Part shown: positions 3,651 through 61,290 of the stretch, piece after piece | Layout: every line of letters begins with the position of its first letter | How positions within the stretch are numbered: position 1 is the first letter of the stretch | Source of the DNA: Dipteris shenzhenensis | Taxonomy: Eukaryota | Reading direction: 5' to 3' (one strand) | Length of the DNA: 64,000 bases | Assembly (NCBI GenBank): GCA_047967505.1 | Contig: CM106538.1 | The notes under the pieces: generated by a model | The model's database searches: none | The model's input: only the letters and a program-made list of their open reading frames with translations | What the model was told of the DNA's origin: nothing | Position numbers and translations under genes: made by a program

Positions 3651-4185
3651 CTACATATCAAGGAAAGAAATCCCAAACCTGCCACATGGAGCATTGTGGA
3701 GGTTTGTAAAAAGGAGGAGGGAGGTTTTGGGAGGCTTGGTGGAGAGGAGGAGGAGGTTCACCGGGTGGAGTGATCTTGCAGCAATAAGTAACATCACGAC
3801 TGCCGCACCCACAGTGATGTGCAGTTTGTAGTGGATCAAATGGGTGCCTAACAGCGCGGCTATAGTGGTGCAGATTGTAGTGCTGCGATTGTAGTGATGT
3901 GGCATAGTTGACATCACAGAGCAGACTGCAGCTCTAAACAAGCCGCAGCTCATGACACGTTGCATTGACTTGGGTTGCCTAAGAGGCACCAATTGCTGAG
4001 AGGCACCAATTGCAGGGGCATAGCAGGAGGAAAGGCTCGCTACATGTGGTGTCAATTGGGGTTGCCTTAGAGGCACGGCCTAGAGCTCGCGACACGTGGC
4101 CATTCACTCGCGGCTAGCCACCAAGTGTCTAGCTGGCCAGATCATGTGGCGCGATGCAACTCCTAAGGGCTCCTAAGGGCCCTCA

Positions 4186-8223: not shown

Positions 8224-9227
8224 CTGAAGAGGAATTACAGAGAAAAAAGATGTTAATATTAAGGGAATTTTTTACCACCGACAAGTGCAGTCCAAAGGGA
8301 AGAGCAAGCACAACCCTCTCTTGAGGTGCATATACTCACATTGGTGTGTGAGTTGTCTATATCAAATGGGAGTAGAATGGTCACCTACTGTTGCAAGCAT
8401 GTAATTTCAACCATCATGCCACGCATCCTGTACTTTCGGATGCGTCCAAGTTACAAATCAAGAACTATGATCAAGGAGAAAAACACTCGGCTACCATCCA
8501 TCACCAGCATGGTGGTAACGACTACTTGATATCCAACGCAAGAAATTGATGACCATACAACATCAAACACGGAACCTCGCTATTGACAAGATTTTAGGGT
8601 TTCACATCTGACAGACTAGAGCCATAATTTTCAAAATAGAGACGCCGCTCAGCTTGAGACTGTAAAAAATATATTTAACTTCTTCGCTACTACAAGTATC
8701 AAGCCACACAACAATGGGAACCAACTTGACAGTACCAACTCTTAATCCAAGACTAAGACGACACTTGGTGGTGTAAAAAAAAATTTGCAGAGCAGACATG
8801 CTACACTGGAGACATCACAGCAAGATAATGTGAGTCTGCACTTGTTGCGATGTTAGATGGGATCATGTTTAATGAGTTAATCCAGTAGAGAGAATGGGTT
8901 GTCCCATTAAACATGGATGAAGCATTGGATCGTATGTAATGGGAGAAACCATTCTCTCTACTCGCTTAACCCAATAAAGATGTTGAGACGGCCAAGTTCA
9001 GCGCGCATAGAAGCGACAAATTTATCGGCCTTAAAAAGAGGATCACTTTATTCAATCAAACTTACTCAATGCCTATGATATTAATTAACAGACGATGAAG
9101 TTTCATGTAAGAGAGGATAATCGTAGATGCCAATAAAATGTGCGTATACTGATAGAGCTCTCTCCCATTTAAAGCAATAAATTCCTAACCTGACAAAAAT
9201 TTCTTGTGCATGGCATCGCAAACTTAC
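8224..9227 (-). other. Predicted 3' UTR intron of the prohibitin gene
   Basis: Donor ca|GTAAGT at 9227. Acceptor tcttttttctctgtaattcctcttcAG|g at 8224 with a strong pyrimidine tract. Confidence 0.6.
8864..8982. repeat. Long imperfect inverted repeat (arms about 54 bp)
   Basis: catgtttaatgagttaatccagtagagagaatgggttgtcccatta pairs with taatgggagaaaccattctctctactcgcttaacccaataaagatg. Confidence 0.85.
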
Positions 9228-9284: not shown

Positions 9285-10115
9285 CTATTTGAAAATCGGG
9301 TTCATGCCGAGAAGCATGTTGTTCCCGTTGGGCAGGTACATGACGTTGGACGTTCTCGCCAAAGTCGCAGCAATCTCTCGTGAGGCTTCAATTCGTCGTA
9401 ACTCAATTAGGCCAGGTCCAGCATGCGCAGTAGCTTCAGATATCATCCTGGCAGACTCACTTTCACCTTCGGCTCTGATGACGGCCGCCCTCATTTCCTG
9501 CTCAGCCTTGGCCACAACAAACTTCGAGCGTTCAGCCTCTTGCTGTGCAACTTGCTTCTGCTCAACAGCCTTCGAAAACTCGGCTCCATAAGAAAGATGT
9601 GTAATGGCTACATCGTCGAGCAGAATATGGAATTCCTTAGCTCTGCGCAGCAGACTCTCCCTCACAAGAGCAGACACAAAGGGGCGCTCAGTCAAAAGCT
9701 GATCAGCATTGAATTGAGCTACCACCGACTTCAAGACCTCATTACCAATTGACGGCAGCACTTTCTCGTTATATTCAAGACCCAACCTCTTGAAGATATC
9801 AGGAAGCATATCAACGTCAGGACGATAAAGAACACGGAGACTCAGATTCACCATCTGCAAGTCCTTGGTCCCCGTAACGGAAGAGACGGAGTGAGCATGA
9901 GTTCGGATGTCAAAAATGAAAGGCCGCTGGAGCCAAGGGATGAGAAAATGGGTGCCTTCACCGACGGTCTTGTCCAAGACACCACGAAAGCGATCGAAGA
10001 TAACAGCCTGCTCGCCGCCATCGACGGTGTAGAGGGAGGCATTGAGGAGAGCACCACCGAAACCCAAAGCGATGGCAGCTTGGGCGACATTCTGGAGGAG
10101 TCTAGGAGCATTCAT
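9285..10115 (-). CDS. PHB3: Prohibitin, type I (PHB3/PHB4-like; SPFH/band-7 mitochondrial inner-membrane protein), 276 aa, CDS without introns
   Basis: Contains [76 protein letters not shown] and [19 protein letters not shown]. The true start is probably the ATG at 10115 (MNAPRLL), not 10430. Confidence 0.97.
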
Positions 10116-11220
10116 TGCAGGGACTACGAGCGCCGGACTTGAGCTTGGAGAGCTTGAGAGCTTGAAGCTCGACAGAGGAGAATGTGGAGAAGTGGCTATG
10201 GCGATAAACAGATCGAAGAAAAACGGTGATAAACAGATGCAAGGCTTGCAGAGCAAGACAACCCCTCTCTCAACCCTAAACACAACATTAGTACTAATTA
10301 ATCTCCCCGTCGTGCACCCTTTGTGGTTTACACGTGCTTCTCTTGGGAGAGGAGGAAAACAAAACACACATACATAAGGAAAACTTTTATAGAGTAGACA
10401 GGATGAACATTGTAAATGAAGTGGCACCATTCGAATGACCTGTTTTGATCAGAAAGTTTGCATAGCGACAAGAATGCCAAAAACCATCCAACAAGAGGGA
10501 TATATGGTTAGGTATGGTCAACGAAAAACTGGCCAATCATTCTTCATAAGCGATACTCCGTTTTGGAACCAAGGCTGCTTGCTTATACAAAAGGAAGCCA
10601 TCAGACAACGAGGTGATGTCTGTGTGAAAGCTCTGACTAATTACTCAGCAAGATGGGGTGGAGATTAATAGGCATGTGAATTTCCTACTGTGATCCCTCC
10701 AATGCCAAATGCAATCTATTCTGAAAAGTATAACGGCTACATGGGAGGTCTCAACCCTGATCGTAAACAAATTGACAGATACGGATCCTCAAATATCTGG
10801 GAGTCTCAATAAAAATAGAACATAGCAATCTCAAGTAAAGTGGAAGTAGCTCGAAGGCTTAGGAGACTTCATAGAACTCGAAAAAGGCACCCAAGCAGGT
10901 GTAGCAACGAAGGAGAAGAATCATTACCAATTCAACTAATTGAGGAAAGCTAAACAAGAGACTGAAAAGGTAAAAGCTAAAAGCGTACAATTTTAGCCAC
11001 CACCACAAATAAATGTGATGAGAAGACCATACTCAAATTTAGAACCAAAATAAAGCAAAATTCTCACCATTAGATTTATACAAAGAGATCAACGTCTAAA
11101 ATTACAACACGTGGCTTAATGAGAGCACAAAAAGGGAAAACTTCCCTCTAGGCTGCCTACCGTAACAAGATGAATGCTCATAAATCATTCATAAGACCTA
11201 GAAAAGAGCGTGGAAAGCTA

Positions 11221-11245
11221 AGAGAGAGACAGATAGAGGAGGGGG

Positions 11246-11290
<45 letters not shown>

Positions 11291-11310
11291 AATTTCTAGG
11301 GAAAAGATAG

Positions 11311-11364
<54 letters not shown>

Positions 11365-11368
11365 GGGG
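11221..11368. repeat. Compound microsatellite: (GA)n, (GATA)n and poly-G
   Basis: Read directly from the sequence. Confidence 0.95.
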
Positions 11369-11975
11369 ATTATGTCGAAAGTTGCATGTAGTTGCATTGG
11401 AATATGTACAATTCTCGAGTAGTGGAGAAAGAATTTTTGGAAATCATAGTTCATAATTTCGCTTTTGGAAGACGAGTTTCATCACCAAGGCTACCTTTCA
11501 AGTAGGCCAAAAATAGATTTCTACCATGAAGATCACATACAAGAGCATTCCAATAGCATAGTAAGGAAATCAGAGAGAAAACCAAGGTGTCAAAACAAGA
11601 GGAGAGCGAGGGGAAAATGCTTCATGATACTTTCCGTGGCCTGCCTTTCTTTGTGATTTTCAAGCTACCCTCATGAGATTTCGGATGCAAACAATGTTTC
11701 CCATTTGTTGCAATGTCCCGAAACTCGAGCATAAGTGATTTTCATGCTTACCTCACCTCAAAATTCTGAGAGGTCCAAAAAATATGGCGCAAAAGGCTGG
11801 AAACTATGATTTTTGGATAATCGTAAATTGCAAACTGACCTCCTCGCTACCATGGGAATGCTCTCTAGGCTAGAAGGGGGCAATCTATTTTCACGGCTAA
11901 CTTCATGGATTTTTCTGTATTCCTGAGAATTCGGTCATCAATATCTTAACAGCTGTGGTGGAGATGTTTCCATGA

Positions 11976-12569
11976 ACCGGTAACGAGGTTCCTGATTCTT
12001 TTGAAATGATGTCCATTGGCTACTTCTCTTCATTTGAGAAGACCAAAAAAGTATTACATTGTCCATGCAGGAATGTTAATAATGTGTTTCATTTTCCTAC
12101 TATGACTAGAAAACTTAGGTATAGTGATGGTAATCAAGCCATCATCAACCCATACCAAAAGCCTCAATGTTTAATCAATGAGCTTCTGGGTTTTGTCACT
12201 GTCCAGGATGATTGGGTTTGTGACTTCTTTGTAGGGACTAGAAGAAATGCTATCTGTGCTCTTCAAAAGAAGAGGAACTATATTGTTGTAGAGCAAGACC
12301 CTTTGCAAGCTACATTCATCTTGCAAAGGGTTTGTGCCATCAACGGTCTTCCTAATGATGATCATAAAGTTGGTGCTAAATCCTGTGCAGATAATGCAGC
12401 AATATAGATGGCCTATGGAGGGCCCCAGTCTACCCTCAATAATGAAGAATTTGAGCTGGTAGAGCTATTTGAGGATGCAGCAATGGTTGCCAGGCCAAAT
12501 CCTATGAAGGACACAACCACCCAACAAACAACCCATGAATCACCTGATAGACAAATATTGGACATTTAG
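11976..12569 (+). pseudogene. Beta-class DNA N6-adenine/N4-cytosine methyltransferase (N6_N4_Mtase-like) C-terminal fragment
   Basis: NPYQKPQCLINELL...QDDWVCDFFVGT..NAICALQKKRNYIVVEQDP matches motifs X, I and II (HPxQKP..L...I.....GD.VLDPF.GSG....A...GR..IG.E.D). The frame continues past TAG at 12405 into an acidic tail ending at 12569. No DPPY/SPPY motif is visible upstream. Confidence 0.8.
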
Positions 12570-13499
12570 ATGTTGCTCCTTGAGTTGTAGATGTTCAATA
12601 TCTTGTTATGACAGTTCTCTTTTATTGAGTTGGAGAGTTGGATATCAGTTGAATCTCATGGAATGACAGCTCCCTTTTATTGAATATGAGATCTCTTTTC
12701 TTTGTTTCAGAGTATACAGTTGTCATTGGTAATTATTTTGAGAACTATTATTTTTCTTTAATTTATAGTGTTTATATTTTATTTCAATCAATATATTTTA
12801 CCAATTAGGATTATTGATACTTTCATTATTTTACTATAATGTTTTAATTTATTTTTTTAGGATTCCAAATGCAAAAAGTTTCAAATTTGAAAGATTTTAA
12901 TACTGTAATCTGATCATCTCTCTTTAAAAGAGGGAGAGGAGATCAAGATTGTCTTACTATTGCTTCTATATTCATCAAAATGTTCTTCATATTTGTACAA
13001 TAAATGAAGAAGTTCATGAAAATAAGAGATCTCAAGCAAATAATATTATCATATATCCAAAGTCACAGATATTAATCTATAAATAATAAACATGCTAAGT
13101 GAACAATCTTATTGTCTATCTAAAGTCAAAGATATTAAACTATAAAAGACAAACATGCATCACAAAGTGCATCTTATCAATATTTTGGTTAATAAATTGT
13201 CAAGTATTATAAACTTACCTTTTTTTTTTTAAAGTTACTTTAAAAATCAATGGTTTTTAAAATCAAAAATATCCAAAATTATCCCAAAAAGAAAAATGTA
13301 TTTAAAACTTTTTTGTTTTAAATGGATAGGTGTAAATCTCACCTTAATTTCAAATTTTAGTTAAACTTTAGCACTATTTTGAGGCAATTTAAAAAGTGGA
13401 TAACACGCAATAGTTCTAACTTAATATTCAATACTATTTGTCTTTTAGGCTCTATTTACCATATGTCCATTGTGATCCTATGGAGAGGTTAGTAGACAA

Positions 13500-14700
13500 A
13501 ACCCGTATTATTGCATTGTGGGAATTTACAACCTATCTTGGGAATTTACAACCTATCTTGAGAGCAAGTAATGTCGATAAAGACATTACTTAAGAACGGC
13601 ACCACATCCATCATGTTCCCCCTTTCCAGGGATGTGGACCAAAGAATTCTAGATCATGTTTAGATGAGTGAGGGATTTAAACCATGCAATAAAGTAGAAT
13701 CCACTGGCTGATTTAAATTGCGAGGATGTATATTAGGCTAGCAAGATGTCACCATCCAAGATCTTCTCTAGAACAAAGTGATATTGCAACTGTACATGGT
13801 CCAAGCATGGAATGTTGAATCTTGAGAAATAGCTATACATCTTGGGTTGTCACACTGGATAATTGTAAGTTCCCTCTATTGGAACCCAATCTCATCAACA
13901 AATAACATCCGCAGCCACACCGCTTCTTGCTACTTCAAGAAATTGCTTCTAATATAACAAGAGTGATGTGGTCATTAGTAGTAAGACAATTAACATCAAG
14001 ATCATTATTGGATAATCTTCTAATCTATTGGAATGAAGAGGTGCAATTTTTCCATAATCTTGAAATTTTCTTATCCTCCACTTGAACCTAGTCCTAAAGC
14101 AATACAAGATAAAATGCTCGAGAGGACTCGAATGCCTTATCCAAGGTTAGATGTCAGTATTGTCTCATCAAAGTCTCTCACACAAATAATAGAAAAACAC
14201 TTTGTCAATTATCCATTCCAGGCCATGGGTGGTGTACATGAGAGAAACTATTTGTCAATATTGGAGCGTGTTGATGATGTCCATAGTAAATCATAACTGT
14301 GCAAGCTAGAGACTAGAGAGGATGGAATAATCATGCTATGTACAAGAGAAATTTTAATGGATTAGCAACTTTGAGCCATAGAAAAAGGAATGATAGAAAG
14401 GAATGATTGAGAGTTTACTTTTGTCATTTCTTTTTCTTTTCAGACATGGTGCACATGATGGTTAGCTATTCTTTCATGAGTATTTAGAAATGAGGATCTT
14501 TTTCTTGGTCTACAAATGTATGACTCTTGCCATGCATTTGCAATAAATAATGGGACAAAAACTGCTATTCTCCAAAGAGATATGGATCAGAAGCATCATG
14601 AAAGACAAAATGCAACACGCAAGCAATTGATGAGGGACATCTTAAAGTTTAGGATCCAAGCAACAATCCTAGGCTTTCCCTCTTGGCATCGGAGGTACTA
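13500..14700 (-). mobile_element. Sola2-like DDE transposase relic (copy A)
   Basis: The minus strand reads SSQFKSASGFYFIAWFKSLTHLNMI*NSLVHIPGKGEHDGCGAVLK at about 13590-13730. The extent beyond about 14000 is uncertain. Confidence 0.7.
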
Positions 14701-15129
14701 AAGAACCTAATGACAATGGTTGTGCTTTCTCTTCTACTTTGATTTTAAAATATCAAAAAACACATCCCTCATTTGTTGTTCTTCCTCCATTTTCTCTCCT
14801 CTTGATTGTCTTGTTGTCTTTGTTTGCTTTCTTCCCTACTTTGCCTACCCACCCTAGTTTTTGCTTTTTTGAATTGACATACACCATGCAAGGAATGGGG
14901 TGGATATAGCCTTGGAAAATCTGAGGGATTTGAACGTGGGCGGCCAGCTGTTGTGCCCTATCAGCAGCTAAGTTGCCCCTTCTCCTTAGGCCCTTTATAG
15001 ATCAAGTGTCCAAAGTAGGGACATGGGTTGATGTGTCTACCATGCATTATCGGTGGATTTGCTACACAAAATGGGGAGCGCCCATGCAACTAGGTAGCCT
15101 CAACCCCCTGCCCATCCTAAAAATGGACC

Positions 15130-15195
15130 AATGATGGGATTTGAACCCATGCAAGCCAATAGTGTGCCTAAACCTCTAGCCACATAGCCATGTTT
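15130..15195 (-). mobile_element. tRNA-derived (SINE-like) Pol III head
   Basis: A-box-like TGGCTATGTGG and B-box GGTTCAAATCC on the minus strand. A second B-box-like site lies near 14925. Confidence 0.4.
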
Positions 15196-17249
15196 ATTGC
15201 TTATTATGATTGCCTTTTGTTACAAAAAATTTGCTATCCACTGGCCATGCATTTCCTGCACCTTCTCTCACGTGGGTGCGCAATGAGTGGTGTGTACCCA
15301 CCCTTAATTGAGTGGTCAATGGGGATGAGCCTCCTATGTCTAGACTTGAATTGAACAAGGTTTTCGAAAGACTTTACTAGGCTTGCCATTTAAGGGTGTG
15401 ATAGTACTAGGCCTGCTGTTAAGGTGTGTGATTTGGTTTTACTATTGGCAAGGTAGGCATGTAGATTTATGGTGACTACTTAATAAGGAGGATGTATGTG
15501 GATGAGTGGTGGGACCAATAGTAGTGATTTGTCCCTATGATGGTTGTTGCATCAATGTTTGTCCAAGTGTGGTCTAGTGTGGAATGATATATCGTCATTG
15601 GCTGGTTGGTTGATAACTTGATATCATGAGATTTGCTATGGATTGTTGGAGGGATGCATGCAAGGTGTGGGCCAATTAGTGTTGTCCTGATTGAAGAGAA
15701 TCTAACAAATACTTGCTAGGATTCTACGATGGGTGTTTTTGGTTGTTTTTGGTGATTTATATGCTCTGATTATGTGTATTCCATTGTACATCTTGTTTTT
15801 GAATGTGGCATGTATGATCTCGATGCCATATTTTTATTATTGTTGTGCTAGCAAGCTGATGTTGTGTTGTCTTGTATATAATGGGAGACCATATTTTTCA
15901 AAGCACAATGTTGCTTGTGAGGGTTTTGGTTGTTGTTTTAGTCTTTGTTTCTTAGAGCCATAAAATGTTTGTAGCATGAGATTATTGTTGGCTAGTATGT
16001 CTTGCATATGATTATTGAGTGAGATTGTGTTCAGAGATTTAATGATTGTGTGTGAGTTATTGTACAATAGCATGTTATTTTGCAAGCTCTCCCATGTTGT
16101 TGTTGTTTGTAGTTGTGGAATCTCATGGAGAACAACATTATCAACTTTGATGTATTTTTTTTCCCACCTTATTAAGAATAGATTATTTGAGCTTTAAATT
16201 TGAGAGTTCAGAAGTGGATCGATCTCTTTCTCTCTCACTGTGACAAGTAAGCTCAATAGATCAACATCTATGCTTGCAATCACACTAGCTCCCAATTGTA
16301 CATAGCTCAGGGTTGAGGCAGAATAGAGCAAAAATGGCCACTTGTGGAGAGGAAGGCAGAAGGGCAATGTAGACAGTAGTGGAGAAGCTCAAAGTGAGAA
16401 GATTTATAAATGTGTAGAGGTTGAACATGGGAAAGCTTGTAGAAAGACGTAAAGCGGTATGGGTAGTGGGGAGGGGAAAGTGGGGGAGTGTAAAGGGGAG
16501 GTCAGATGGCTAGAACGAAGGTTTCGCATCAAATGCCCAGAAATAAGTCTTCAAGCTCTCTCCCTATGGGAAGCGTTTAATCCCATGCCAACAACATTGA
16601 ACGCAAGGCAAAAAATGAGAATTTTCAAGGTAAGCCAAAAATACAAGAAATGAAACAAGGATTGCCAGCCACAGATACAATCAATGAAAAAAATTGCATT
16701 TTCAAAGTTAAGAAAATCTTGATTTTTCTCATATCAAGCTACATGCCTCTGCTTATGCCTGCCTAGGGTAGGTCCAAAAACATAAAAAAACAATGGGTGC
16801 CCATGATGAGTATACTCTATTAGTATTTGTGGTGGGATGAGGGGGTGATTAAGGTAAGGTGAACAAGGCAATTAATGTAAATGCAAGGGCGGTTAGGATT
16901 CTAGAAATTTGTCTCGAGAAGATTCAAATTGGTTGCCACGTGAGTATATAGAGAGGAGCTTCATATTAGTCTTCACCCTGTTGATCAAGTCAATGAAAGA
17001 AAACACTCTAATATGTTCAAGTGTGTCAAAATAAATCTCTGTATGAATAAAAAACTATTGAGAAAAGCTATTAAAAACTTACCACATCATGTTCTCCTAA
17101 GAATGGCAATAATTCATGAGTGCTTATGCAATTGAGGCTTCCTGAGTAGTGGAATGAAAAATAATGAAGCTCCAAATTGGAGCTGTGTTGTGCGCTTTGA
17201 ATGTCGAGACCATGGCATCAGTTTGTTTATGTCCCAAACTAATTTCATT

Positions 17250-17430
17250 TATGTGGGGATTAAAGACCACTGTGCCTTAATCCCGATTATGTGCACAATA
17301 CTCAACATATATATATGAATGACATATAAGATAAGGGTGGTTCACCACCCACAAATCTATGCATTCCTCTCTGGCTCTCACTCTCTCTTGTTTTTCACTT
17401 CCGTTGTTAACTCAAAACTAGTATCAGAGC
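17250..17430 (+). mobile_element. 5' LTR and Met-tRNA primer-binding site remnant
   Basis: tagtatcagagc at 17419-17430 is one mismatch from TGGTATCAGAGC. It follows a TATA-containing and CT-rich segment. The left boundary is approximate. Confidence 0.5.
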
Positions 17431-49200: not shown

Positions 49201-50650
49201 ATGTACCTCAAGTCAATTAGGTTCCAAGATAGATTAGCTTGGACTCATAAAGAGAATCTTGAGATAGTGCAACATGCTTGATTTATATTACTTTAGAGGA
49301 ACCTCCCTTTTATAGATGAGGGTACTTACATCCATATGCTTGCTCACATGTGGGATATCTCCTCCATGCCATGTGGCATCTTTCCCTTTACTCATACCTT
49401 TGCTCTACCATGGCACCACAACTTCAACAGCCTCTTGTTACAATTAGAAAATTGTGGATCGAAGAACAAAAACATATATGTTTTTGCATACCTTTCTTTG
49501 CTGGTGGCTAAGTGGGTTTTCTTAATGATAGAGATGGGTTTCTTAATGGTTGTCATACCCATGAAGATATTGATGCATTGTTTTGCCGTCTTTCAGAGCA
49601 ATTGAGGACAAATCATTCTCTCACTCTAGCACATCTTATGAAAACCTTCAACGAGTGAACAGGCTCAAGGCCTGCCCCATTTATGATGATAGAGGTTCCA
49701 GAATTTAAAGGGTTTATTGATGGTTACTCATGTGAACGCCATGATAAACTTATTGGACATTTAAAGCCACTGCATTTTTGTTTTTTCATACAAGATGACA
49801 TTCCAGTAATGTAGTACAAAATGAATCACATGCAAGATCATTGGATGCCAAAGGGTGGTGGCATAGAGTTGTGGAAAAGAGATATTCTTGGAAAACCTTT
49901 GTTGCCAATTGGGGAACCAACAGTGCTTCCAATGTGTGAGTACTTAAAAGATAGTACTCAAGTGGTGAATGGCATAAAGGACTATATAAAATATTGGAAC
50001 AAGCATCGCATTGACAAAGGCTCACTGGATCCTTATTCTATATACATTACGCCAGTGATACGGTATTGGGAAAACATGATCAATGCATTGTTAGAATTTG
50101 CATCAACTATGCAAAGTCAAGATATATGTACAGGCTTTTGGCCATAGACAACACATGCAACAGAATAGAACACCAGCACCGAAAATGAAGGCTTCATGTC
50201 TTTAAAGGCATTGGAAGACCACTACTGTGGTCCACAATGTAACAAGACAAAAGATACATTCCAACCTCTTATAGATGTAAAAAAGGGCGACTTTGTTCTT
50301 GTGAGGCCAAGCGACAATATATATCCAATTTGGTTGGGTGAAGCCGAGTCAGACATTGAATCCAACACTTCCTCTAAAGAATACAACATGGTATTGATAA
50401 AATATTGGGCGCCATGTTCTCTAAGAAGAATGCAAGTGAGGAAGAAGTGTATGCAAATTGTTGGGAGAAATTTTGGATGTGCAATGACAAAGATGCTACA
50501 CGTTGGGAGTAAGCAGACTCAATAGTATGGAGTTGGACACCGAAAGGAGGGAAGAAGCCCAAGAAGATCAAAATTCCACCTACCATGTGTGAGAAAGCAG
50601 AAGCAAGCGTAGAAGGGGCTGATCAAGTAAACGACAAGAGTGCAGATTGA
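46240..50650 (+). mobile_element. Sola1-like DDE transposase relic, split by an LTR insertion
   Basis: Removing 46359-49434 gives KTLSPCLLLQLENCGSKNKNIYVFAYLSLLV..FLMV-HTHEDIDAL, i.e. the LQLDNCxxxNKN...GHTHEDID motif. The C-terminus reads DVKKGDFVLVRP..PIWLG..YWAP. Confidence 0.8.
46359..49429 (-). mobile_element. Complete non-autonomous LTR retroelement (TRIM/LARD-like), 3071 bp
   Basis: LTRs at 46359-46682 and 49113-49429. TSD GCCTC at 46354-46358 and 49430-49434. Met-tRNA PBS at 49100-49112 and PPT complement cctcccct at 46683-46690. No recognisable gag or pol. Confidence 0.92.
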
Positions 50651-51120: not shown

Positions 51121-54100
51121 TCATTTCTTTAAACAAATGGCGTTTATATCTTTACACCAACTATTATATAAATGTGTTGATAATTCAACAAAGTTAACTC
51201 TCTTGTATGGCATTGCAATGTTAAATTTGAGCTTTTCATTGTCTATTGGAATGTTTTTCAAGTTTTCATTGTCAAATACTAAATAATTTAAGGTGAGTTA
51301 TTGTAGGTGGCTTGTGCAATCATGTTGCAATTGAAGAAGATTTTTGAGTTTACACAACAAATACTTCATTCCCAAAGTTAATGAGACATCTCACTTATTT
51401 TCTCATTAAAATGGCATCAATGAGATACATAAAGATCATATGCATCATTCCCAAAATTAATGAAACACTCTAAATTAATCAATGTAAAATAACAAAACCA
51501 AAATTAATAGAATTTGACATTCTTAGTCTAAGAGACACTACAGATGCAACAACCATTTCCCAAAATTAATGAAACAATGGACACAGCAACAAACTAAAGA
51601 TCCACAATGTGACTATGTATGAAATAAGAGATCCATTATGGTTGAGCCAAGATGAAGATGGGTTAGAAAGATGAGAAGAGTATGAGGAAGGTGTCCAAAA
51701 ATGGGAGAGTACATGTAAGGTTCTCTCTCCCAATTTCATTTTCCCAAAATTACTAATACCGTGTTATCAATAGACATGACTTGTTTCTCTTAAAGAGATG
51801 CTATGCTTATACACCTACTTGGTGTAAAAATACATCCTTTAAGGTATAAAAATAAACTCATAAACAATGTTCATACACATTAATGAGAGAAAATAGATCA
51901 AAATAAGCTCATAAGAGTTGTTTATATACATTTTTAAGAGCACAGAGATCAAAACAATCTCATAAAAAATATACATACACATTAATGAGAGATAAAAAGT
52001 GATTGGTTTATTTTGAAATTTGTTTAATATGAAATTCTAGACCCAAGTTCTTGAGTACTAAGTTCTTGGCTACCATACTCATGACTTATAGGCTCCTCTA
52101 GAATAGTCTTGGAGGTTTGACAAGGATCATTAGTGCATGATATAGTTAAGACTTCCTTACTTGCCCTACTTTCTCCACTAACATGATTGTTTCATCTTGT
52201 CTACAAGGTTTTAGGTTTAGGCTCATCATTACCTCCTTTAGATAATGATTTCTTGATCGTCTCACCTCCTCTAGTCTTCTGTGAGGCCCACTACCTCTTA
52301 TAGGTAATGCTTCCTTCCTTACCCCACCTTTCCACATCCCCATCCTTCAAAAGTGGATTTGGTTACCTTTATGCGTATTAATTTCTCTCTTCCCATTGCT
52401 ATAGGCTTCCCTTTCCCTTTTATGGAAACATCATGGATTAATTCTTGCCTTTGGCCTTCTTGTATGACAAGTGGAATCTCCTTGACTCTTTCTAGTACTC
52501 AATCCCCATGCATTTTTATGTGCATTTCTATTAATTGCTCCACACGATTTAGCTAAGAAGGTAAGTATGGGTCTGTAAAACAAGGATCTAAGGCGTGGAG
52601 TATACTTCCAACTGAAGGAAAAAGAATCGAAAGTGTGGAGAATGTCAAAATCAATGTTCAAGTGTAGAAGAAGTGTATCTTTGAAAAGAGATTTAGGGGG
52701 AATTTTAGTTAAAATTTTGTTTGAATAAAGAACATGAAAGTACTTCGAACTTTTTTCCTTTGGAATTGACTGAAAAAGAAATAATGCATTGTTGAGTAAT
52801 TTGGTGGTACATACCTTGGGAACGTCAAAGGGAGTGATTTGCAAAAGCCAAGAAGTTAGAGACGATCAATGTTTAGCCCAGTCAATGGAATAGTGTGAGG
52901 TATCATCATTATCTGGTGTTTTTCTTTTGAGAGGAGAGGTGCTGAAAGATTTCAGTTGGGAAGCTTTAATATGAGAGGCAAGGGAAGGGTTGATGAGCAG
53001 GGAATAAGGGATAGATTTTTGGAATTTAGGGGTTTATTTTGGGGGGGAACTACGTCTTGTTTTGGGTGGAAGAGGTTGAGTTTAGCAGTAGAGGATAGGG
53101 AAAGAATGTTAAGGGCTAGGGAGGGACCTGGGAGGTTGAGAAAGGAAGAGGGGAGGGAGTAGTCAGTGGAGCGGGAAAGGGAATTTGCTGTTTCAAGGAG
53201 GAGGATCCTAAAGTGATAAAAGGTGACAAGGGAGAAGATTACCTCTTTAGGTAATTGCGACATCTAGTTTAAGAAGGACAAGAATTTGTCTTGTAAGGAG
53301 CCAAAAGGGGAAGAGATATCTAAATGGTTATGTACTAGACAACATGATCAAACTAGAGGATAGAGCATTTGCAGGACATGTTCATCTTCTTAATGAGATA
53401 GGTAAACTTTATGTAAGGCATGAAGATATTCCAACAATTCTTGACATAATAATTGTCATCTTTGTTTAAAGAGCTAGCATCATTATGAGTGGCACCTTTT
53501 GAGCAAAAGAAAACCTCCTTGGGGAGGCCACATTTAGAATGGCCAATAGAGCTTAGAAAAAAGTGGGTGTTGAAGAAGTAATTTGAGTTAGGATGTTAAC
53601 TCCCCTGATAGGCATCTTCTTTGCATTGATCCACCTCTTTTGATGAGAGGTTACAAATGAAGGCAAGGGATTGAATGGAAAAGGGTGCAAGAGAGCTGAG
53701 GTTCTCAAGACACCAAATCTTATGATCAACAATGGGAGCTTTCATTTCTATGTGTCTAAGAGAAAGAAGGGGCACATAGGAAGCAAAATTATTGAGCTCT
53801 CTACTGTCAAGGGGCTTAGGTGTTTGTGAGAGACATTGAGAGAGGGTTTTGAAAGAAGCCTTGTCTTTGGGGGAGAAGAGATCAAGATTAATAAAGCTAT
53901 GAAAACTAGTGTTTAAAGGGGATAAACCAATAGGGATGGGGAGGGGGAAGGCACCATTGAGAATAAGGATGTCATTTGCAAGGCCATATGATACTCATTC
54001 AAAGTACTAGTGTCATTGAGATTGATAGTGGCTAGGTTTGAGGCTTTTTCAAGTCTGGCAAAAGCGCCATCACTTTCGCTTTGTGAGAATTTAAGAAGTT

Positions 54101-56199: not shown

Positions 56200-57360
56200 G
56201 ACACTCTTGCCCTTTTTTCCATCTAGACATAGCTTGGAATTGGAACTTAATAGCTCTTACTAGATGAGACTACACAAATGTTTGCAGACTATTATGTACC
56301 AGTTTGTAATTGTGGTCTCTCTTGGATGTTTTTCTATAACAAATAGCTCCAACTACTACATCCCATTAGGGGAGAATTGGGATCTCAAAAGAGCCTCGTA
56401 AGAAATGGATTAAGTTAATTACAAGTGAACCATTATGGTAACCCATGAGCTAAGGGCCCATGGATCATAGATCTAGGATGCATTGGAATGACTTTGGTGG
56501 GCTCCAAGTGGCAAGATCTGACAAGGTGGCGGCAAGGTTTGACTTTGTGGAGGACTCATTAAGAGGGAGAAGGCACCTTTTAATGTGTACCCTTGATATA
56601 GATATGAGATCAATGGCTAAAATGGAGGGTCCTATTTGGAGGGCTAGGATGAAGGTGCATTTTGTAAGGTGGAGATCTAGATCCAAGATTAAGGGCCCAG
56701 ATTTTAGTGCTTGTGTGGATGGTGTGGATTGAAGTGCCATTTTCAGTCACTTCCTCCCTTGGATCCATCCTTCGTCTATGGCCAAGATTAAGAAAATTTT
56801 TTCACTCATCCCCTCCCTTGAATACACCCCTTGATTTATGGCCTAAATTAAAGTGTAATTTCCTCTCATCTCCTCCCTTGGATCTACCCCTTGATCTGAT
56901 GATTAGGAGTGTTCCACCATAAATTTGAATGTGACCCTTGGATTGGAGATCAAATAAATGGCTAGGAGTGAGGACCATGGGTATAAACCATGGGTGAGAG
57001 GTATCGCCAACCATAAACGCTCAACATGGCCTTTTGTACAACACAATATGCCATTGTTCCACGCAAAGGAGCACTCTCATTGGTTCACCTCTAATCTCTT
57101 GAAATTAATTCAAGGCCCTTTTGAGACCCCAAATCTTCCCTAATTCACTTCTCATAGCTTGTTCCCCAATGATCCATAAATGATTTCTCAACCTTGTGCT
57201 TGGGTTTGGTACATTGCAACACAAATTATGGGTCATCTTCCTCATTCTCCTCAGAGTCAGTGACAACTGCAAAGTATGGGTCATCTTCCTCATTCTCCCT
57301 AGAGTCAGCAACAACTGCAAAGTTATACCCCTCTTTCAGATAGTCAAGTGAGGTCATCAA
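56200..57360 (+). mobile_element. Possible Copia 3' end: RNase H tail, PPT and 3' LTR
   Basis: ETTQMFADY resembles TxxQxAD. PPT-like ttaggggagaa near 56366-56376. A ~49-bp tandem duplication lies at 57228-57323. Confidence 0.35.
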
Positions 57361-57399
57361 AACATTCCCAAACTATGGTGAGTCATCATTTGTCTCTCC

Positions 57400-58170
57400 A
57401 TTGTTTGTCACTCCATCTTCATGTAGAGGGAAAACTTGAACTGCCTCTTATCTCTTAACAATTGCAATATCCTCACACCCTGTGATGCATGCACTACAGA
57501 AGCAAAAAAGTTTTCTTGTTTTGAATAGGTGGTTGTTTGAAAAGCCCTTATATGCTATGAAAACTATGAGTTCATTTAATGGCCTTGCAATTTTGTGTCT
57601 ATTTCTCCTTTGCACTTTAATCACTTTCACTTCATGGAACACTCTGCGCATGACACTATTCTTGAGGCTTTGATTACTGTATGTATATTGTGACCCTGTG
57701 GAGAGGTTGGATGTGGGCCCTATTATAGCATCATGGGAACAATTGAGATTTTTTTGAGGTCATGTTGGTTGGTGCTTGAACACAGCTCACTTAATAACAA
57801 CACCACATCCATCATGTTCCCCCTTGCCATGGCTAGCCCAAAGAAATTCCACATCATGTTTAGAATAGTTACAGATTTAAACCTTGAGACAAAATGGAAT
57901 CTTCGAGCTGATTTAAACTAAGAGGAAGCACCATCTGAACATACCCAATGTTGTTTTATATTTTCTTGTACATGGGGATCATCATTTTTTAGCCATTCCC
58001 AATGCAATAGAAAATAAGGTGTCATTTTTTCCGTCATCCAAAATGTAGAAATGGTATGTGCATTTCACTCACATGCCCTCTGAGTTAGCAAAGAAATTGG
58101 CGTCAGCCATACAAGAATCAAGCACATGACCGTATGTGATATGCAGTAGAATTGATATCTGCACACAGAA
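57400..58170 (-). mobile_element. Sola2-like transposase relic (copy B)
   Basis: HWVCSDGASS*FKSARRFHFVSRFKSVTILNMMWNFFG-SHGKGEHDGCGV and RKLFCFCSAC. Confidence 0.8.
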
Positions 58171-58199
58171 CTTCTGTAGTTACTAGCAAAACTTTCAAT

Positions 58200-59573
58200 C
58201 TAAAGTGTATTAAAATTTTTTGAGAGAATGTGGTGGTGTCAGTAGTTGATTTTGCAGAGAACTACACTTTTAAAGTGCATAATGAAATCCAATCAGTGCA
58301 TTGGGATAATGACCAATGTACCATCATGGTTCAAATTTGCTATTATTGGGAGATGGGGAGATTATAAAGCAGTCCATCTTTTACATTTCAAATGACAAAT
58401 AGCATGACACATTATTCGTGCAACATTCCTTTATCCTCCACTACCAATGGCTATTGTCCAAAGGCTTGAAGTTGCTTTATGCTCCACTACCAATGGCTAC
58501 TGTCCAAAGGCTTGAATTTGAAAATACATTGGGTTTGCTCACAGATGAGGCATAATCTCAGTTGAAGGAAGCACACCCATTTTACTTGTTGCAAGGTAAG
58601 GCATTTGTAATCGGTCCTTATTGTTTTCTACATCACTATGAATATGCTACACATTTTGAGGTGCTATATTACAAACTTATTCCTCTTCTAGTTGTGCTAG
58701 GTATTGCTCTTTGACTAGTATTCGGATGACGTGGAGCTTTTTTGCTAGTGGACATGCAAGGGAGAACATGACGGTGCTAATCTAGTGATAAAACATACAT
58801 TAACTGCCCAACAATTGGATGCAAATGGTGTGAAGCTAGATAATGCTCATGAGGTTATGGATTGGTTGACTTGGAAGATGGGAGAAGATGTGAAGAAAAG
58901 ACTTTTCGTGGAAGGAAAGGTGGGTGATGTAGACATGACTAAAGCATGGGATTGCCAGACGACCAAAGGGACTATGTCAAGGCACAAGATATTGGGTTTT
59001 AGTAGCAAAGATCCTACACAAGCCCTGATCAAAGGTTTATCGTGCTTTTGTACATTCTACATGGATGAATCATGGGACAAGTTCACCAATTTATCTCATC
59101 CAGGTACATGGACCTTGGACAGGCTGGAGCCCATCAATGGACTAAATGCAAGAGCCATAGAGGATGATACAACATACTCAATGGATAGGGACCAGGCAGT
59201 AGACATGCTTAAGATGGGTGACCATTTTGCAATGCTCACGTTCCCCCTAAATGACAATGATGAGTATTATTACATGATGCTATGCAAGCAACCGAAAAAA
59301 ATCCTGTCAGAGCAAGTTGAGGATAGTTGGGGCAATGTGGTCAACATTGGAGGTGGAATGGTCTATGGATTCTTCGATGCCAAACTACCTACTAGAAGAA
59401 GTAGTTATTTCCTATGTGATGAGGCACCACCTACTATCGTGCATTCTGATGTAGTGTTGGCAATCAAGTTCCAGATGCTGCAACAAGTAAAGCACAAGGT
59501 TAAAGGCCACATAATAGTGTAAAGTGTCCCCCTAGAGGTGCATGAAGAGATCTTGGCAAAAATTTCATTGTGA
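58200..59573 (+). mobile_element. Sola2-like transposase relic (copy C) with intron 58596-58700
   Basis: VVDFAENYTFKVHNEIQSVHW, FYISNDK*HDTLFVQH, WSFFASGH..GEHDGA and LSCFCTF. Confidence 0.85.
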
Positions 59574-60619: not shown

Positions 60620-61290
60620 TGATTAATATAGTACTAATATATCCTTATCCTTTTCATGATTAATTTAGTACTGATATATCAATGTTCATGTAGTAAGGAT
60701 ATATTAGTACTAAATTGGTACTAAATTAACGCTGATATATCTTTACTAAATGAGTACTAAATTAATGCTGATATATTAGTACTAAATTACTAAGAATATA
60801 TTAGTGTTGATTTAGTAAGGATATATTAGTACTAAATTGGTACTAAATTAACATTGATATACTAGTAGTGAATTAGTACTAAATCAATATATCAACTTTA
60901 GTACTACTCAACATCTTAGTATTAGTACTAATTAGCATATTAGTCTTGATTTAGCACTTCGTTAGTTTTACAATTAGTACTAAATTAACACTGATATATC
61001 AGCACTAAATTAGTACTAAATTAGCACTGATATATCTGTACTAAATTATTATTAAACCAACATATTATAATAAGTACTAATCAACATCTCAACATTAGTA
61101 CTAATCAACATATTAGTGTTGATTTAGCACTTAGTTAGTTTTACAATTAGTACTAAATTATTACTAAACTAGTGTTGATTTAGCACTTAGTTAGTTTTAC
61201 AATTAGTACTAAATTATTACTAAAATAACACTGATATATCAATACTAAATAATTACTAAATTAGCATATCATCATTAGTACTAATCCACA
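60620..61290. repeat. AT-rich array of palindromic TTAGTACTAA-core repeats in mixed orientation
   Basis: Roughly 20 agtact/tagtacta-type cores with ctgatatatc and gatttagcac spacers. Confidence 0.9.

Follow-up and report, generated by a model that had tools for sequence, protein, structure and literature searches.

A dead amino-methyltransferase gene in Dipteris shenzhenensis, apparently split by an inversion, is probably a remnant of a DNA transposon

A 64,000-nt stretch of contig CM106538.1 of Dipteris shenzhenensis (assembly GCA_047967505.1), analyzed here as a whole and called the window, contains at 11976-12569 on the plus strand a fragment of a bacterial-type DNA methyltransferase (methylase) gene, lying tail-to-tail with a transposase relic. 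Our analysis indicated that this fragment is probably the 3' half of a dead methylase gene, derived from a decayed DNA transposon and having no present function. Comparison with its relatives showed a multi-exon family of predicted beta-class amino-methyltransferases in land plants and plant-like contigs, and placed the predicted methylase gene last before a sharply defined transposon end. The neighboring transposase relic, named here for its peptide GKGEHDG, did not carry the methylase, we infer, and is part of another element, whether older or adjoining.

The open reading frame (ORF) 11976-12407(+), with 143 open codons, bears the sequence ...NPYQKPQCLINELL...DDWVCDFFVGT...KKRNYIVVEQDP and an NPYQKPQ motif. 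It matched the Pfam profile PF01555 (N6_N4_Mtase) with an E-value of 5.2e-8 (33.5 bits; curated gathering cut-off, 26.7), which bore out the beta-class signature that a preliminary description, made from the letters of the window alone, had read on the plus strand. The match spans profile positions 138-213 of 221, the C-terminal half only. Among the 127 window ORFs scanned against Pfam, each of at least 78 aa, no other matched PF01555 and none matched another methylase family. Homology to relatives begins at about 12000-12006 and not at 11976, as the ORF opens with ten codons unrelated to methylases, and continues past the TAG at 12405-12407 to at least 12518, so that the stop at 12567-12569 is apparently the native end. 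The best database relative (P0001) is 71% identical, and its alignment crosses this TAG to 12518; the segment 12006-12569(+) scored 153.2 bits with a hidden Markov model (HMM) of the family, built without the window sequence. An exhaustive HMMER search of 1.84 billion protein representatives returned 77 relatives (cut-off, E<=1e-3), and a word-indexed protein search for longer relatives of the fragment gave no scoring match.

Organism names were found on 11 of the 29 methylase representatives looked up: Adiantum nelumboides (seven, with one further cluster member), A. capillus-veneris (two), Ginkgo biloba (one, 670 aa) and the liverwort Riccia sorocarpa (one). Many of the fern gene models were truncated or chimeric, one being fused to a piece of retrotransposon integrase, as expected for a gene that is repeated and decaying. 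Full-length relatives are built of an N-terminal region, a conserved ParB-looking domain, a helical linker, the methylase and a tail of the form LPDxxQEVG...EPQPP. The N-terminal domain is probably ParB-like, on weak support: DUF6551 matched this region in 3 of 10 members (best E, 0.009), a PDB profile search gave no ParB match, and Foldseek ranks 1-11 for an AlphaFold model (mean predicted local distance difference test score [pLDDT], 58.8) were all ParB, Noc, Spo0J or KorB proteins, with E-values of 0.18-0.64. Motif IV of the intact relatives reads D-[I/A/L]-P-[Y/H/R]-G (DIPY, DIPH, DAPY) and not (D/S)PPY. With this Y/H/R variation, some members may not be catalytic.

The window copy is a pseudogene, lacking exon A and having in-frame stops in each surviving exon; stops lie at 11973 and 12405, with two more in the exon B relic described below. 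Its S-adenosylmethionine (SAM) loop (motif I, FxGxG) reads DFFVGTRRN, versus DLFSGSGTT or DFFAGTGTT in relatives; the second glycine of this loop (G547 in the numbering of P0010), with a conservation of at least 90% among 21 aligned sequences, is replaced by arginine. The catalytic motif IV is absent from 11976-12569, as first reported, and could not be aligned elsewhere, since the alignable part of the exon B relic starts only at HMM position 149, past this motif; a weak alignment puts YIYV at the site of the relatives' DIPY. A relic of exon A (N-terminal/ParB) was sought in the window with the family HMM, and the best match, 52579-52725(+), was rejected as not significant (HMM E, 0.36; tblastn E, 0.024). 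Being a pseudogene, the window copy is therefore uninformative on N4-methylcytosine (4mC) or N6-methyladenine (6mA) in the source genome.

The proposed transposon origin of the gene was read from the loci of its relatives. A scan of metagenome contigs yielded 80 loci with methylase relatives, and the related-locus set used for counts comprised 83 loci (414 kb in total). The better loci have a G+C fraction (GC) of 0.30-0.40 and a four-exon gene matching Ginkgo residues ~112-669. In two loci, L015 and L024, a large intact DUF7869 ORF adjoins the methylase gene (Table 1). The two transposases are 58% identical and fall in DUF7869 clusters of Streptophyta and Oomycota in the protein atlas; a PDB sequence search with the L015 transposase gave no match. 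In L015, the transposase and methylase genes both lie between the arms of a perfect 26-nt inverted repeat (1-26 and 8595-8620). This terminal sequence was found in 14 of the 83 loci, always in the right-end orientation, downstream of the gene and 0.7-1.2 kb past the methylase stop; at all 14 ends the similarity runs 9 nt further (...GAACGCGAACGTGTT) and then stops, with a different flank at every one of them. In a second subfamily, six loci share an end of their own (...TTTACATTGTT), and the five flanks long enough to compare are all different. In each of two pairs of loci, L018/L017 (99.05% identity over 4210 nt) and L012/L031 (99.27% over 3159 nt), the similarity reaches the terminus, beyond which the two flanks are unlike; such copies, about 99% identical in different surroundings, point to recent movement. 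Between L015 and L018, identity is 74% in coding DNA and 94% in the last 67 nt. The ratio of nonsynonymous to synonymous substitution rates (dN/dS) was 0.39 for L006 versus L008; five other pairs had dN of 0.13-0.37 with saturated dS, and saturation likewise precluded a ratio for the ERZ-named loci. Owing to these defined ends, transposase neighbors, recent mobility and selection, we take the methylase to be a gene that is maintained in a mobile element bounded by terminal inverted repeats. Just inside the right terminus, both subfamilies carry a short inverted repeat able to form a hairpin (AAGTGGAA...TTCCACTT and GAAACGGG..CCCGTTTC; L015 8560-8629 with 13 other loci, and L004 3700-3763 with five other loci), and both end in ...TGTT.

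A 23-bp palindrome, AACTCGATACGNCGTATCGAGTT, was found in 8 of the 83 loci, upstream of the methylase gene wherever the gene start could be placed. Eight copies (3654-3999) lie between the transposase and methylase genes of L015; outside L015, six loci have one copy each and L052 has four. As a candidate site, this palindrome may be bound by the ParB-like domain.

Several points weigh against a transposon of this kind as the source of the fragment. A transposase gene was seen in just 2 of the 83 related loci; most contigs are too short to show one, and at least 3 kb upstream of the match is available only in L015, in L008 and in the 5'-truncated L031. Both element ends were seen in L015 only, where a target-site duplication is unreadable because the left repeat lies at the very start of the contig. 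The plant origin of the contigs was deduced from their introns, GC of 0.30-0.40, retrotransposon gag neighbors and similarity to fern and Ginkgo proteins. The weakness of the ParB-like assignment and the departure of motif IV from the canonical (D/S)PPY, with catalysis by the members putative, belong to the same list. Within the window, 0.87 kb separates the methylase stop from the nearest transposase relic, one of the GKGEHDG type, and the DUF7869-type relic is 32 kb off; for this reason, the methylase and a GKGEHDG transposase may possibly have been combined in a lineage-specific element. No element end was identified around the methylase relic in the window, in which the relatives' terminal sequence and palindrome had no matches. 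Since the right end of the relatives lies 0.7-1.2 kb past the methylase stop, an element boundary would be expected within 12570-13437.

The preliminary description had suggested that methylases are regular cargo of Sola2-like elements, and had noted the convergence of the methylase, across an AT-rich spacer, on a GKGEHDG transposase on the minus strand. The layout was as described: the peptide GKGEHDG is encoded at 13607-13627(-), within a relic of ~0.3 kb (13438-13731) lying tail-to-tail with the methylase, and the spacer is AT-rich (Table 1). This relic shares 78% identity with 57789-57926 over 140 nt (blastn E, 1e-24) and is collinear with the copy at 57.8 kb at the protein level; its GKGEHDG core matched the protein P0081 weakly (E, 0.086). 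An in-frame stop after ...V(L/I)K is common to the copies 13438-13731(-) and 57658-57926(-), and therefore the relic beside the methylase would descend from an already dead element. It also contains a perfect 20-nt tandem duplication (TGGGAATTTACAACCTATCT x2) at 13519-13558. P0081, the single protein found by the 'near' search with the GKGEHDG transposase ORF, is 57% identical over 273 aa to the plus-strand copy 58224-59570; a word-indexed protein search for longer relatives of this ORF gave no scoring match. The two relics at 57-60 kb stand head to head, both ending near the first catalytic-looking motif (ESFASNY / DFAENY), ~25 nt apart; their arms are old and divergent and hence no recent inverted duplication. 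A dense AT-rich palindromic repeat array (60620-61270; units like TTAGTACTAAATTA...CTGATATATCA) ~1 kb downstream of the plus-strand relic may represent subterminal repeats of that element.

The GKGEHDG material is a candidate for assignment to Sola2. The layout DFxEN ... SDGxxxQFK ... GKGEHDG could form a DDD triad like that of Sola. Neither the five pieces nor the 257-aa ORF matched a Pfam model, and the protein-atlas clusters matched by the pieces contain DUF7869 in 24% and 64% of their members, with low recognition. Sola is without Pfam models in the part of the literature used here (PMC5751038), and short terminal repeats with 4-bp AT-rich target-site duplications are given as Sola2 hallmarks in the part of Bao and Jurka (2013, PMC3627910) that treats them; no termini or 4-bp AT-rich duplications could be identified for the three GKGEHDG relics of the window (13.4-13.8 kb and 57-60 kb), and a search of their surroundings for inverted repeats gave no convincing result.

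That the methylase was cargo of this GKGEHDG ('Sola2-like') transposon, as a regular pairing in the genome, is in our judgment unlikely. The two relics are close and convergent (methylase stop at 12569, transposase relic end at 13438), both lie in the inverted segment described below and so were neighbors before the inversion, and the window holds three relics of the GKGEHDG type. Sola2 elements also swap cargo modules, Fanzor1 chimeras being an example in the part of Bao and Jurka (2013, PMC3627910) used here. Against this, neither seven tblastn queries nor a motif scan detected GKGEHDG-type sequence in any of the 83 related loci (414 kb). The transposase that does adjoin the gene in relatives is of the DUF7869 type, unrelated in sequence to the GKGEHDG protein (best BLASTP E, 1.2). 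The other two GKGEHDG relics of the window have no adjoining methylase relic by family HMM or tblastn, and the one beside the methylase is only ~0.3 kb long and shares its inactivating stop with the copy at 57.8 kb. The cargo idea is thus partly supported, being right in kind and wrong in the partner: the methylases do appear to travel in DNA transposons (14 of 83 loci at a defined end, two beside a transposase), with DUF7869 in place of GKGEHDG as the transposase.

A DUF7869-type relic is itself present in the window, where one of the 127 ORFs matched this profile (Table 1); we attribute the match to ORF 49297-49602 on the ground that the L015 transposase, used as phmmer query, scored there with an E-value of 4.7e-6. 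At a distance of 32 kb, this relic does not form a pair with that of the methylase. The rejected exon-A-like match (HMM E, 0.36) is situated 2 kb downstream of this relic.

The preliminary description had also counted the fragment as a second, independent methylase-Sola pairing in the window. Two strings, SPPY and DPPF, located at 40.8 kb and 56.6 kb, were weighed as a possible 'first pairing' and rejected since the surrounding ORFs have no methylase similarity by HMM, tblastn or Pfam. The one other methylase piece found in the window by tblastn with relatives (~17083-17276(-), with two in-frame stops) turned out to be part of the other half (17276-16923(-)) of what appears to be the same gene. 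This exon B relic was recognized with exon B of L024 (tblastn E, 1.9e-11), with P0047 (E, 5e-6) and with the family HMM (32.2 bits; E, 6e-12). It closes with ...ENMMW followed by a GTAAGT donor, and the same W ends exon B in L012, L024, L006 and L004. Past a 105-nt intron the minus strand reads WVKTNMKLLSIYSRGNQFE, and the plus strand at the fragment carries on in frame with MMSIGYF. Similarity to the family halts after 16923(-), and on the plus strand it starts only from FE-MMSIGYF (12000 onward); the lead-in residues TGNEVPDS have no match to the family, whereas the minus-strand piece 16977-16923 does match.

Joining ...NQFE to MMSIGYF is in frame and restores both the W-x-K-x-N motif and the exact family spacing to the TIG motif, the spacing K1...E17...I21-G22 across the join being identical to that of P0007. 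The 6-nt sequence TTTGAA is found at both junctions. When the piece 16977-16923(-) was added, the family HMM score of 153.2 bits rose to 164.7, and the alignment crossed the junction ungapped; the full read-through, with X entered at the stops, formed a single ungapped HMM domain (positions 149-403) of 209.9 bits, 24.5 bits over the sum of the separate pieces (32.2 + 153.2). The copy thus reconstructed keeps the hallmarks of the family: the conserved exon boundary after W, NPYQKP and the LP(D/N)xxx(E/K)VG tail. On the basis of the in-frame join, the family spacing, the shared TTTGAA and the ungapped domain, we conclude from these alignments that a 4.9-kb segment, 12006-16922, was apparently inverted within a single, already 5'-truncated gene copy, with the break inside exon C. 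Because the GKGEHDG relic lies inside this segment, its tail-to-tail relation to the methylase would predate the inversion.

It could be objected that the pieces 12006-12569(+) and 17276-16923(-) are independent fragments of two element copies that were never joined, as transposon-rich DNA often contains numerous unrelated fragments. The breakpoints are indeed unmarked, a search for inverted repeats or transposon ends there having yielded nothing convincing, and exchanging the present left context for the minus-strand piece adds just 4.2 bits in the HMM score (164.7 versus 160.5). We regard this alternative as improbable, since the two pieces complement each other exactly, in frame and to the codon; they restore the family spacing when joined, share TTTGAA at their junctions and give one ungapped domain whose score exceeds that of the summed parts, and no third methylase piece was found in the window by tblastn, the family HMM or the Pfam scan of 127 ORFs.

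There is scarcely any likelihood that the fragment represents a truncated host gene, domesticated or still expressed (a SAM- or DNA-binding half-methylase), or a recent bacterial contamination or gene transfer: a 143-codon frame persists, and the nearest relatives P0001-P0003 were likewise called as short ORFs with the same starting place, but the frame starts within unrelated sequence, without its own start context, its SAM loop is damaged, homology extends through the stop, and the spliceosomal introns at conserved sites in relatives from ferns, Ginkgo and a liverwort argue against bacterial DNA. The common start of P0001-P0003 (all MIHAFEMMSIGY), considered as a sign of a shared inversion breakpoint, would most simply reflect the choice of the first Met of exon C by gene callers, and the breakpoint reading was dropped.

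The surroundings of the methylase relic look like transposon-rich land-plant nuclear DNA. GC is mostly 0.35-0.45 in the window, a copia gag-pol occupies 23-25.8 kb, and further retrotransposon domains were found in the Pfam scan. The prohibitin-like gene at 9288-10448(-) may be either intronless or a processed retrocopy, and a long (GA)n/(GATA)n microsatellite (11200-11370) lies between it and the methylase relic.

Table 1. Features of the window and of related loci (window coordinates unless a locus is named)
Feature	Position	Strand	Details
Non-methylase lead-in of open frame	11976-12005	+	Ends TTTGAA (12000-12005); TGA 11973-11975 closes frame upstream
Methylase relic, 3' part of exon C and exon D	12006-12569	+	NPYQKP; degraded SAM loop DFFVGTRRN; tail LPNDDHKVGAK; TAG 12405-12407
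AT-rich spacer, methylase stop to transposase relic	12570-13437		GC 0.34 (12001-13000), 0.315 (13001-14000)
GKGEHDG-type transposase relic, ~0.3 kb	13438-13731	-	Frameshifted, stops; blastn, tblastx, tblastn with P0081
First 19 codons of exon C, (W)VKTNMKLLSIYSRGNQFE	16923-16977	-	Ends TTTGAA; in-frame continuation at 12006(+)
GT-AG intron, 105 nt, phase 2	16978-17082	-	TG/GTAAGT ... AACAG/G, at exon B/C boundary
Exon B relic (middle of methylase domain)	17083-17276	-	Two in-frame stops; upstream motif IV region unrecognizable
DUF7869-type transposase relic	49297-49655 (+ 50169-50522)	+	Pfam E 1e-9 in 1 of 127 window ORFs; phmmer with L015 transposase E 4.7e-6
GKGEHDG-type relic	57154-58199	-	Head to head with 58224-59570(+)
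GKGEHDG-type relic	58224-59570	+	Includes 257-aa open frame 58749-59522
Prohibitin-like intronless ORF	9288-10448	-	Band_7 E 3e-27; single uninterrupted frame
DUF7869 ORF	L015:387-2873	-	E 1.8e-53; divergent, 1.6 kb upstream of methylase gene
DUF7869 ORF	L024:4012-5964	+	E 1.1e-51; 0.5 kb downstream of methylase gene
23-bp palindrome, other loci	L012 41-63, L014 155-177, L018 958-980, L022 258-280, L028 654-676, L031 4612-4634, L052 547-821		

The plant family shares with the beta-class adenine-N6 methyltransferases M.MboIIA, CcrM, DpnA and M.RsrI the order of catalytic motif before SAM loop, the QKP motif and the FxGxG loop. The family profile matched the solved structures of MboIIA (E, 5.7e-14), CcrM (1.8e-11) and DpnA (8e-11) best, with cytosine-N4 enzymes at 2.4e-7, and its best NCBIfam match was CcrM, all scores being far under the equivalog cut-offs. 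It differs from these enzymes in its D-[I/A/L]-P-[Y/H/R]-G motif in place of (D/S)PPY, its spliceosomal introns, its long N-terminal extension and its eukaryote-specific tail, LPDxxQEVG...EPQPP, and the window copy is dead. The best viral families for full-length members were phrog_67 (E, 1.5e-27) and phrog_498 (E, 2.4e-20). The part of Iyer et al. (2016, PMC4738411) used here derives eukaryotic methylases from phage ParB-terminase loci, reports ParB-linked eukaryotic clades in haptophytes, chlorophytes and chytrids, and credits land plants with few adenine-N6 methylases; the plant family, with its probable ParB-like N-terminal fusion, resembles these phage ParB-linked methylases, whereas its closest relatives among IMG/VR viral contigs (three, all distant) are only 42-44% identical over ~65 residues.

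Two other eukaryotic systems carry the same bacterial-type Pfam domain, MpDN4MT1a/b of Marchantia and N4CMT of bdelloid rotifers, and the liverwort Riccia has a member of the plant family. MpDN4MT1 proteins are TSPPY enzymes that cluster with prokaryotic cytosine-N4 methylases, according to the portion of the Walker et al. preprint drawn on here; the plant family lacks TSPPY and matches cytosine-N4 structures far more weakly than MboIIA (E, 2.4e-7 versus 5.7e-14). Bdelloid N4CMT has a chromodomain, and no eukaryotic homologues are reported for it in the relevant part of Rodriguez et al. (2022, PMC8885841). As for transposons with cargo, methylases are described only in giant-virus Mariners, and Fanzor in Sola2, in the part of Bao and Jurka (2013, PMC3627910) concerned with such genes. 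Like these Mariner and Sola2 elements, the element proposed here would be of the cut-and-paste type, with an enzyme beside the transposase and the cargo module at one element end; the giant-virus Mariners differ in carrying other methylase families (Methyltransf_26 and C5), against a DUF7869 transposase and apparently land-plant hosts here. Our literature search found no description of land-plant transposons with a PF01555 gene.

In intact elements, the ParB-like domain might load the methylase on the element, perhaps at the 23-bp palindromes upstream of the gene, and the methylase could then mark the element's own DNA with 6mA or 4mC. Such marking could regulate transposition, couple it to replication or blunt host silencing. 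We tentatively propose, as a possibility well short of an even chance, that non-flowering land plants (liverworts, ferns, Ginkgo and the contig sources) harbor an undescribed cut-and-paste transposon with a DUF7869 transposase and an active ParB-guided amino-methyltransferase that writes 6mA or 4mC on the element, with the palindrome arrays as loading sites and with the timing of transposition, or escape from silencing based on 5-methylcytosine, as its purpose; the window would hold a fossil of one such element.

Bacterial-type amino-methyltransferases are rare in eukaryotic nuclear genomes, Marchantia sperm 4mC and bdelloid N4CMT being the two studied cases, each of them a notable find. The window copy is ordinary and dead, but it leads to an intron-bearing family that appears to be under purifying selection and to have moved recently in some of the source organisms, and that is physically tied to a transposase within terminal inverted repeats. 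An active enzyme would make the family a writer of a non-canonical DNA mark that plant transposons themselves encode, with a direct parallel in bacterial IS10/Tn10, whose transposition is under Dam control.

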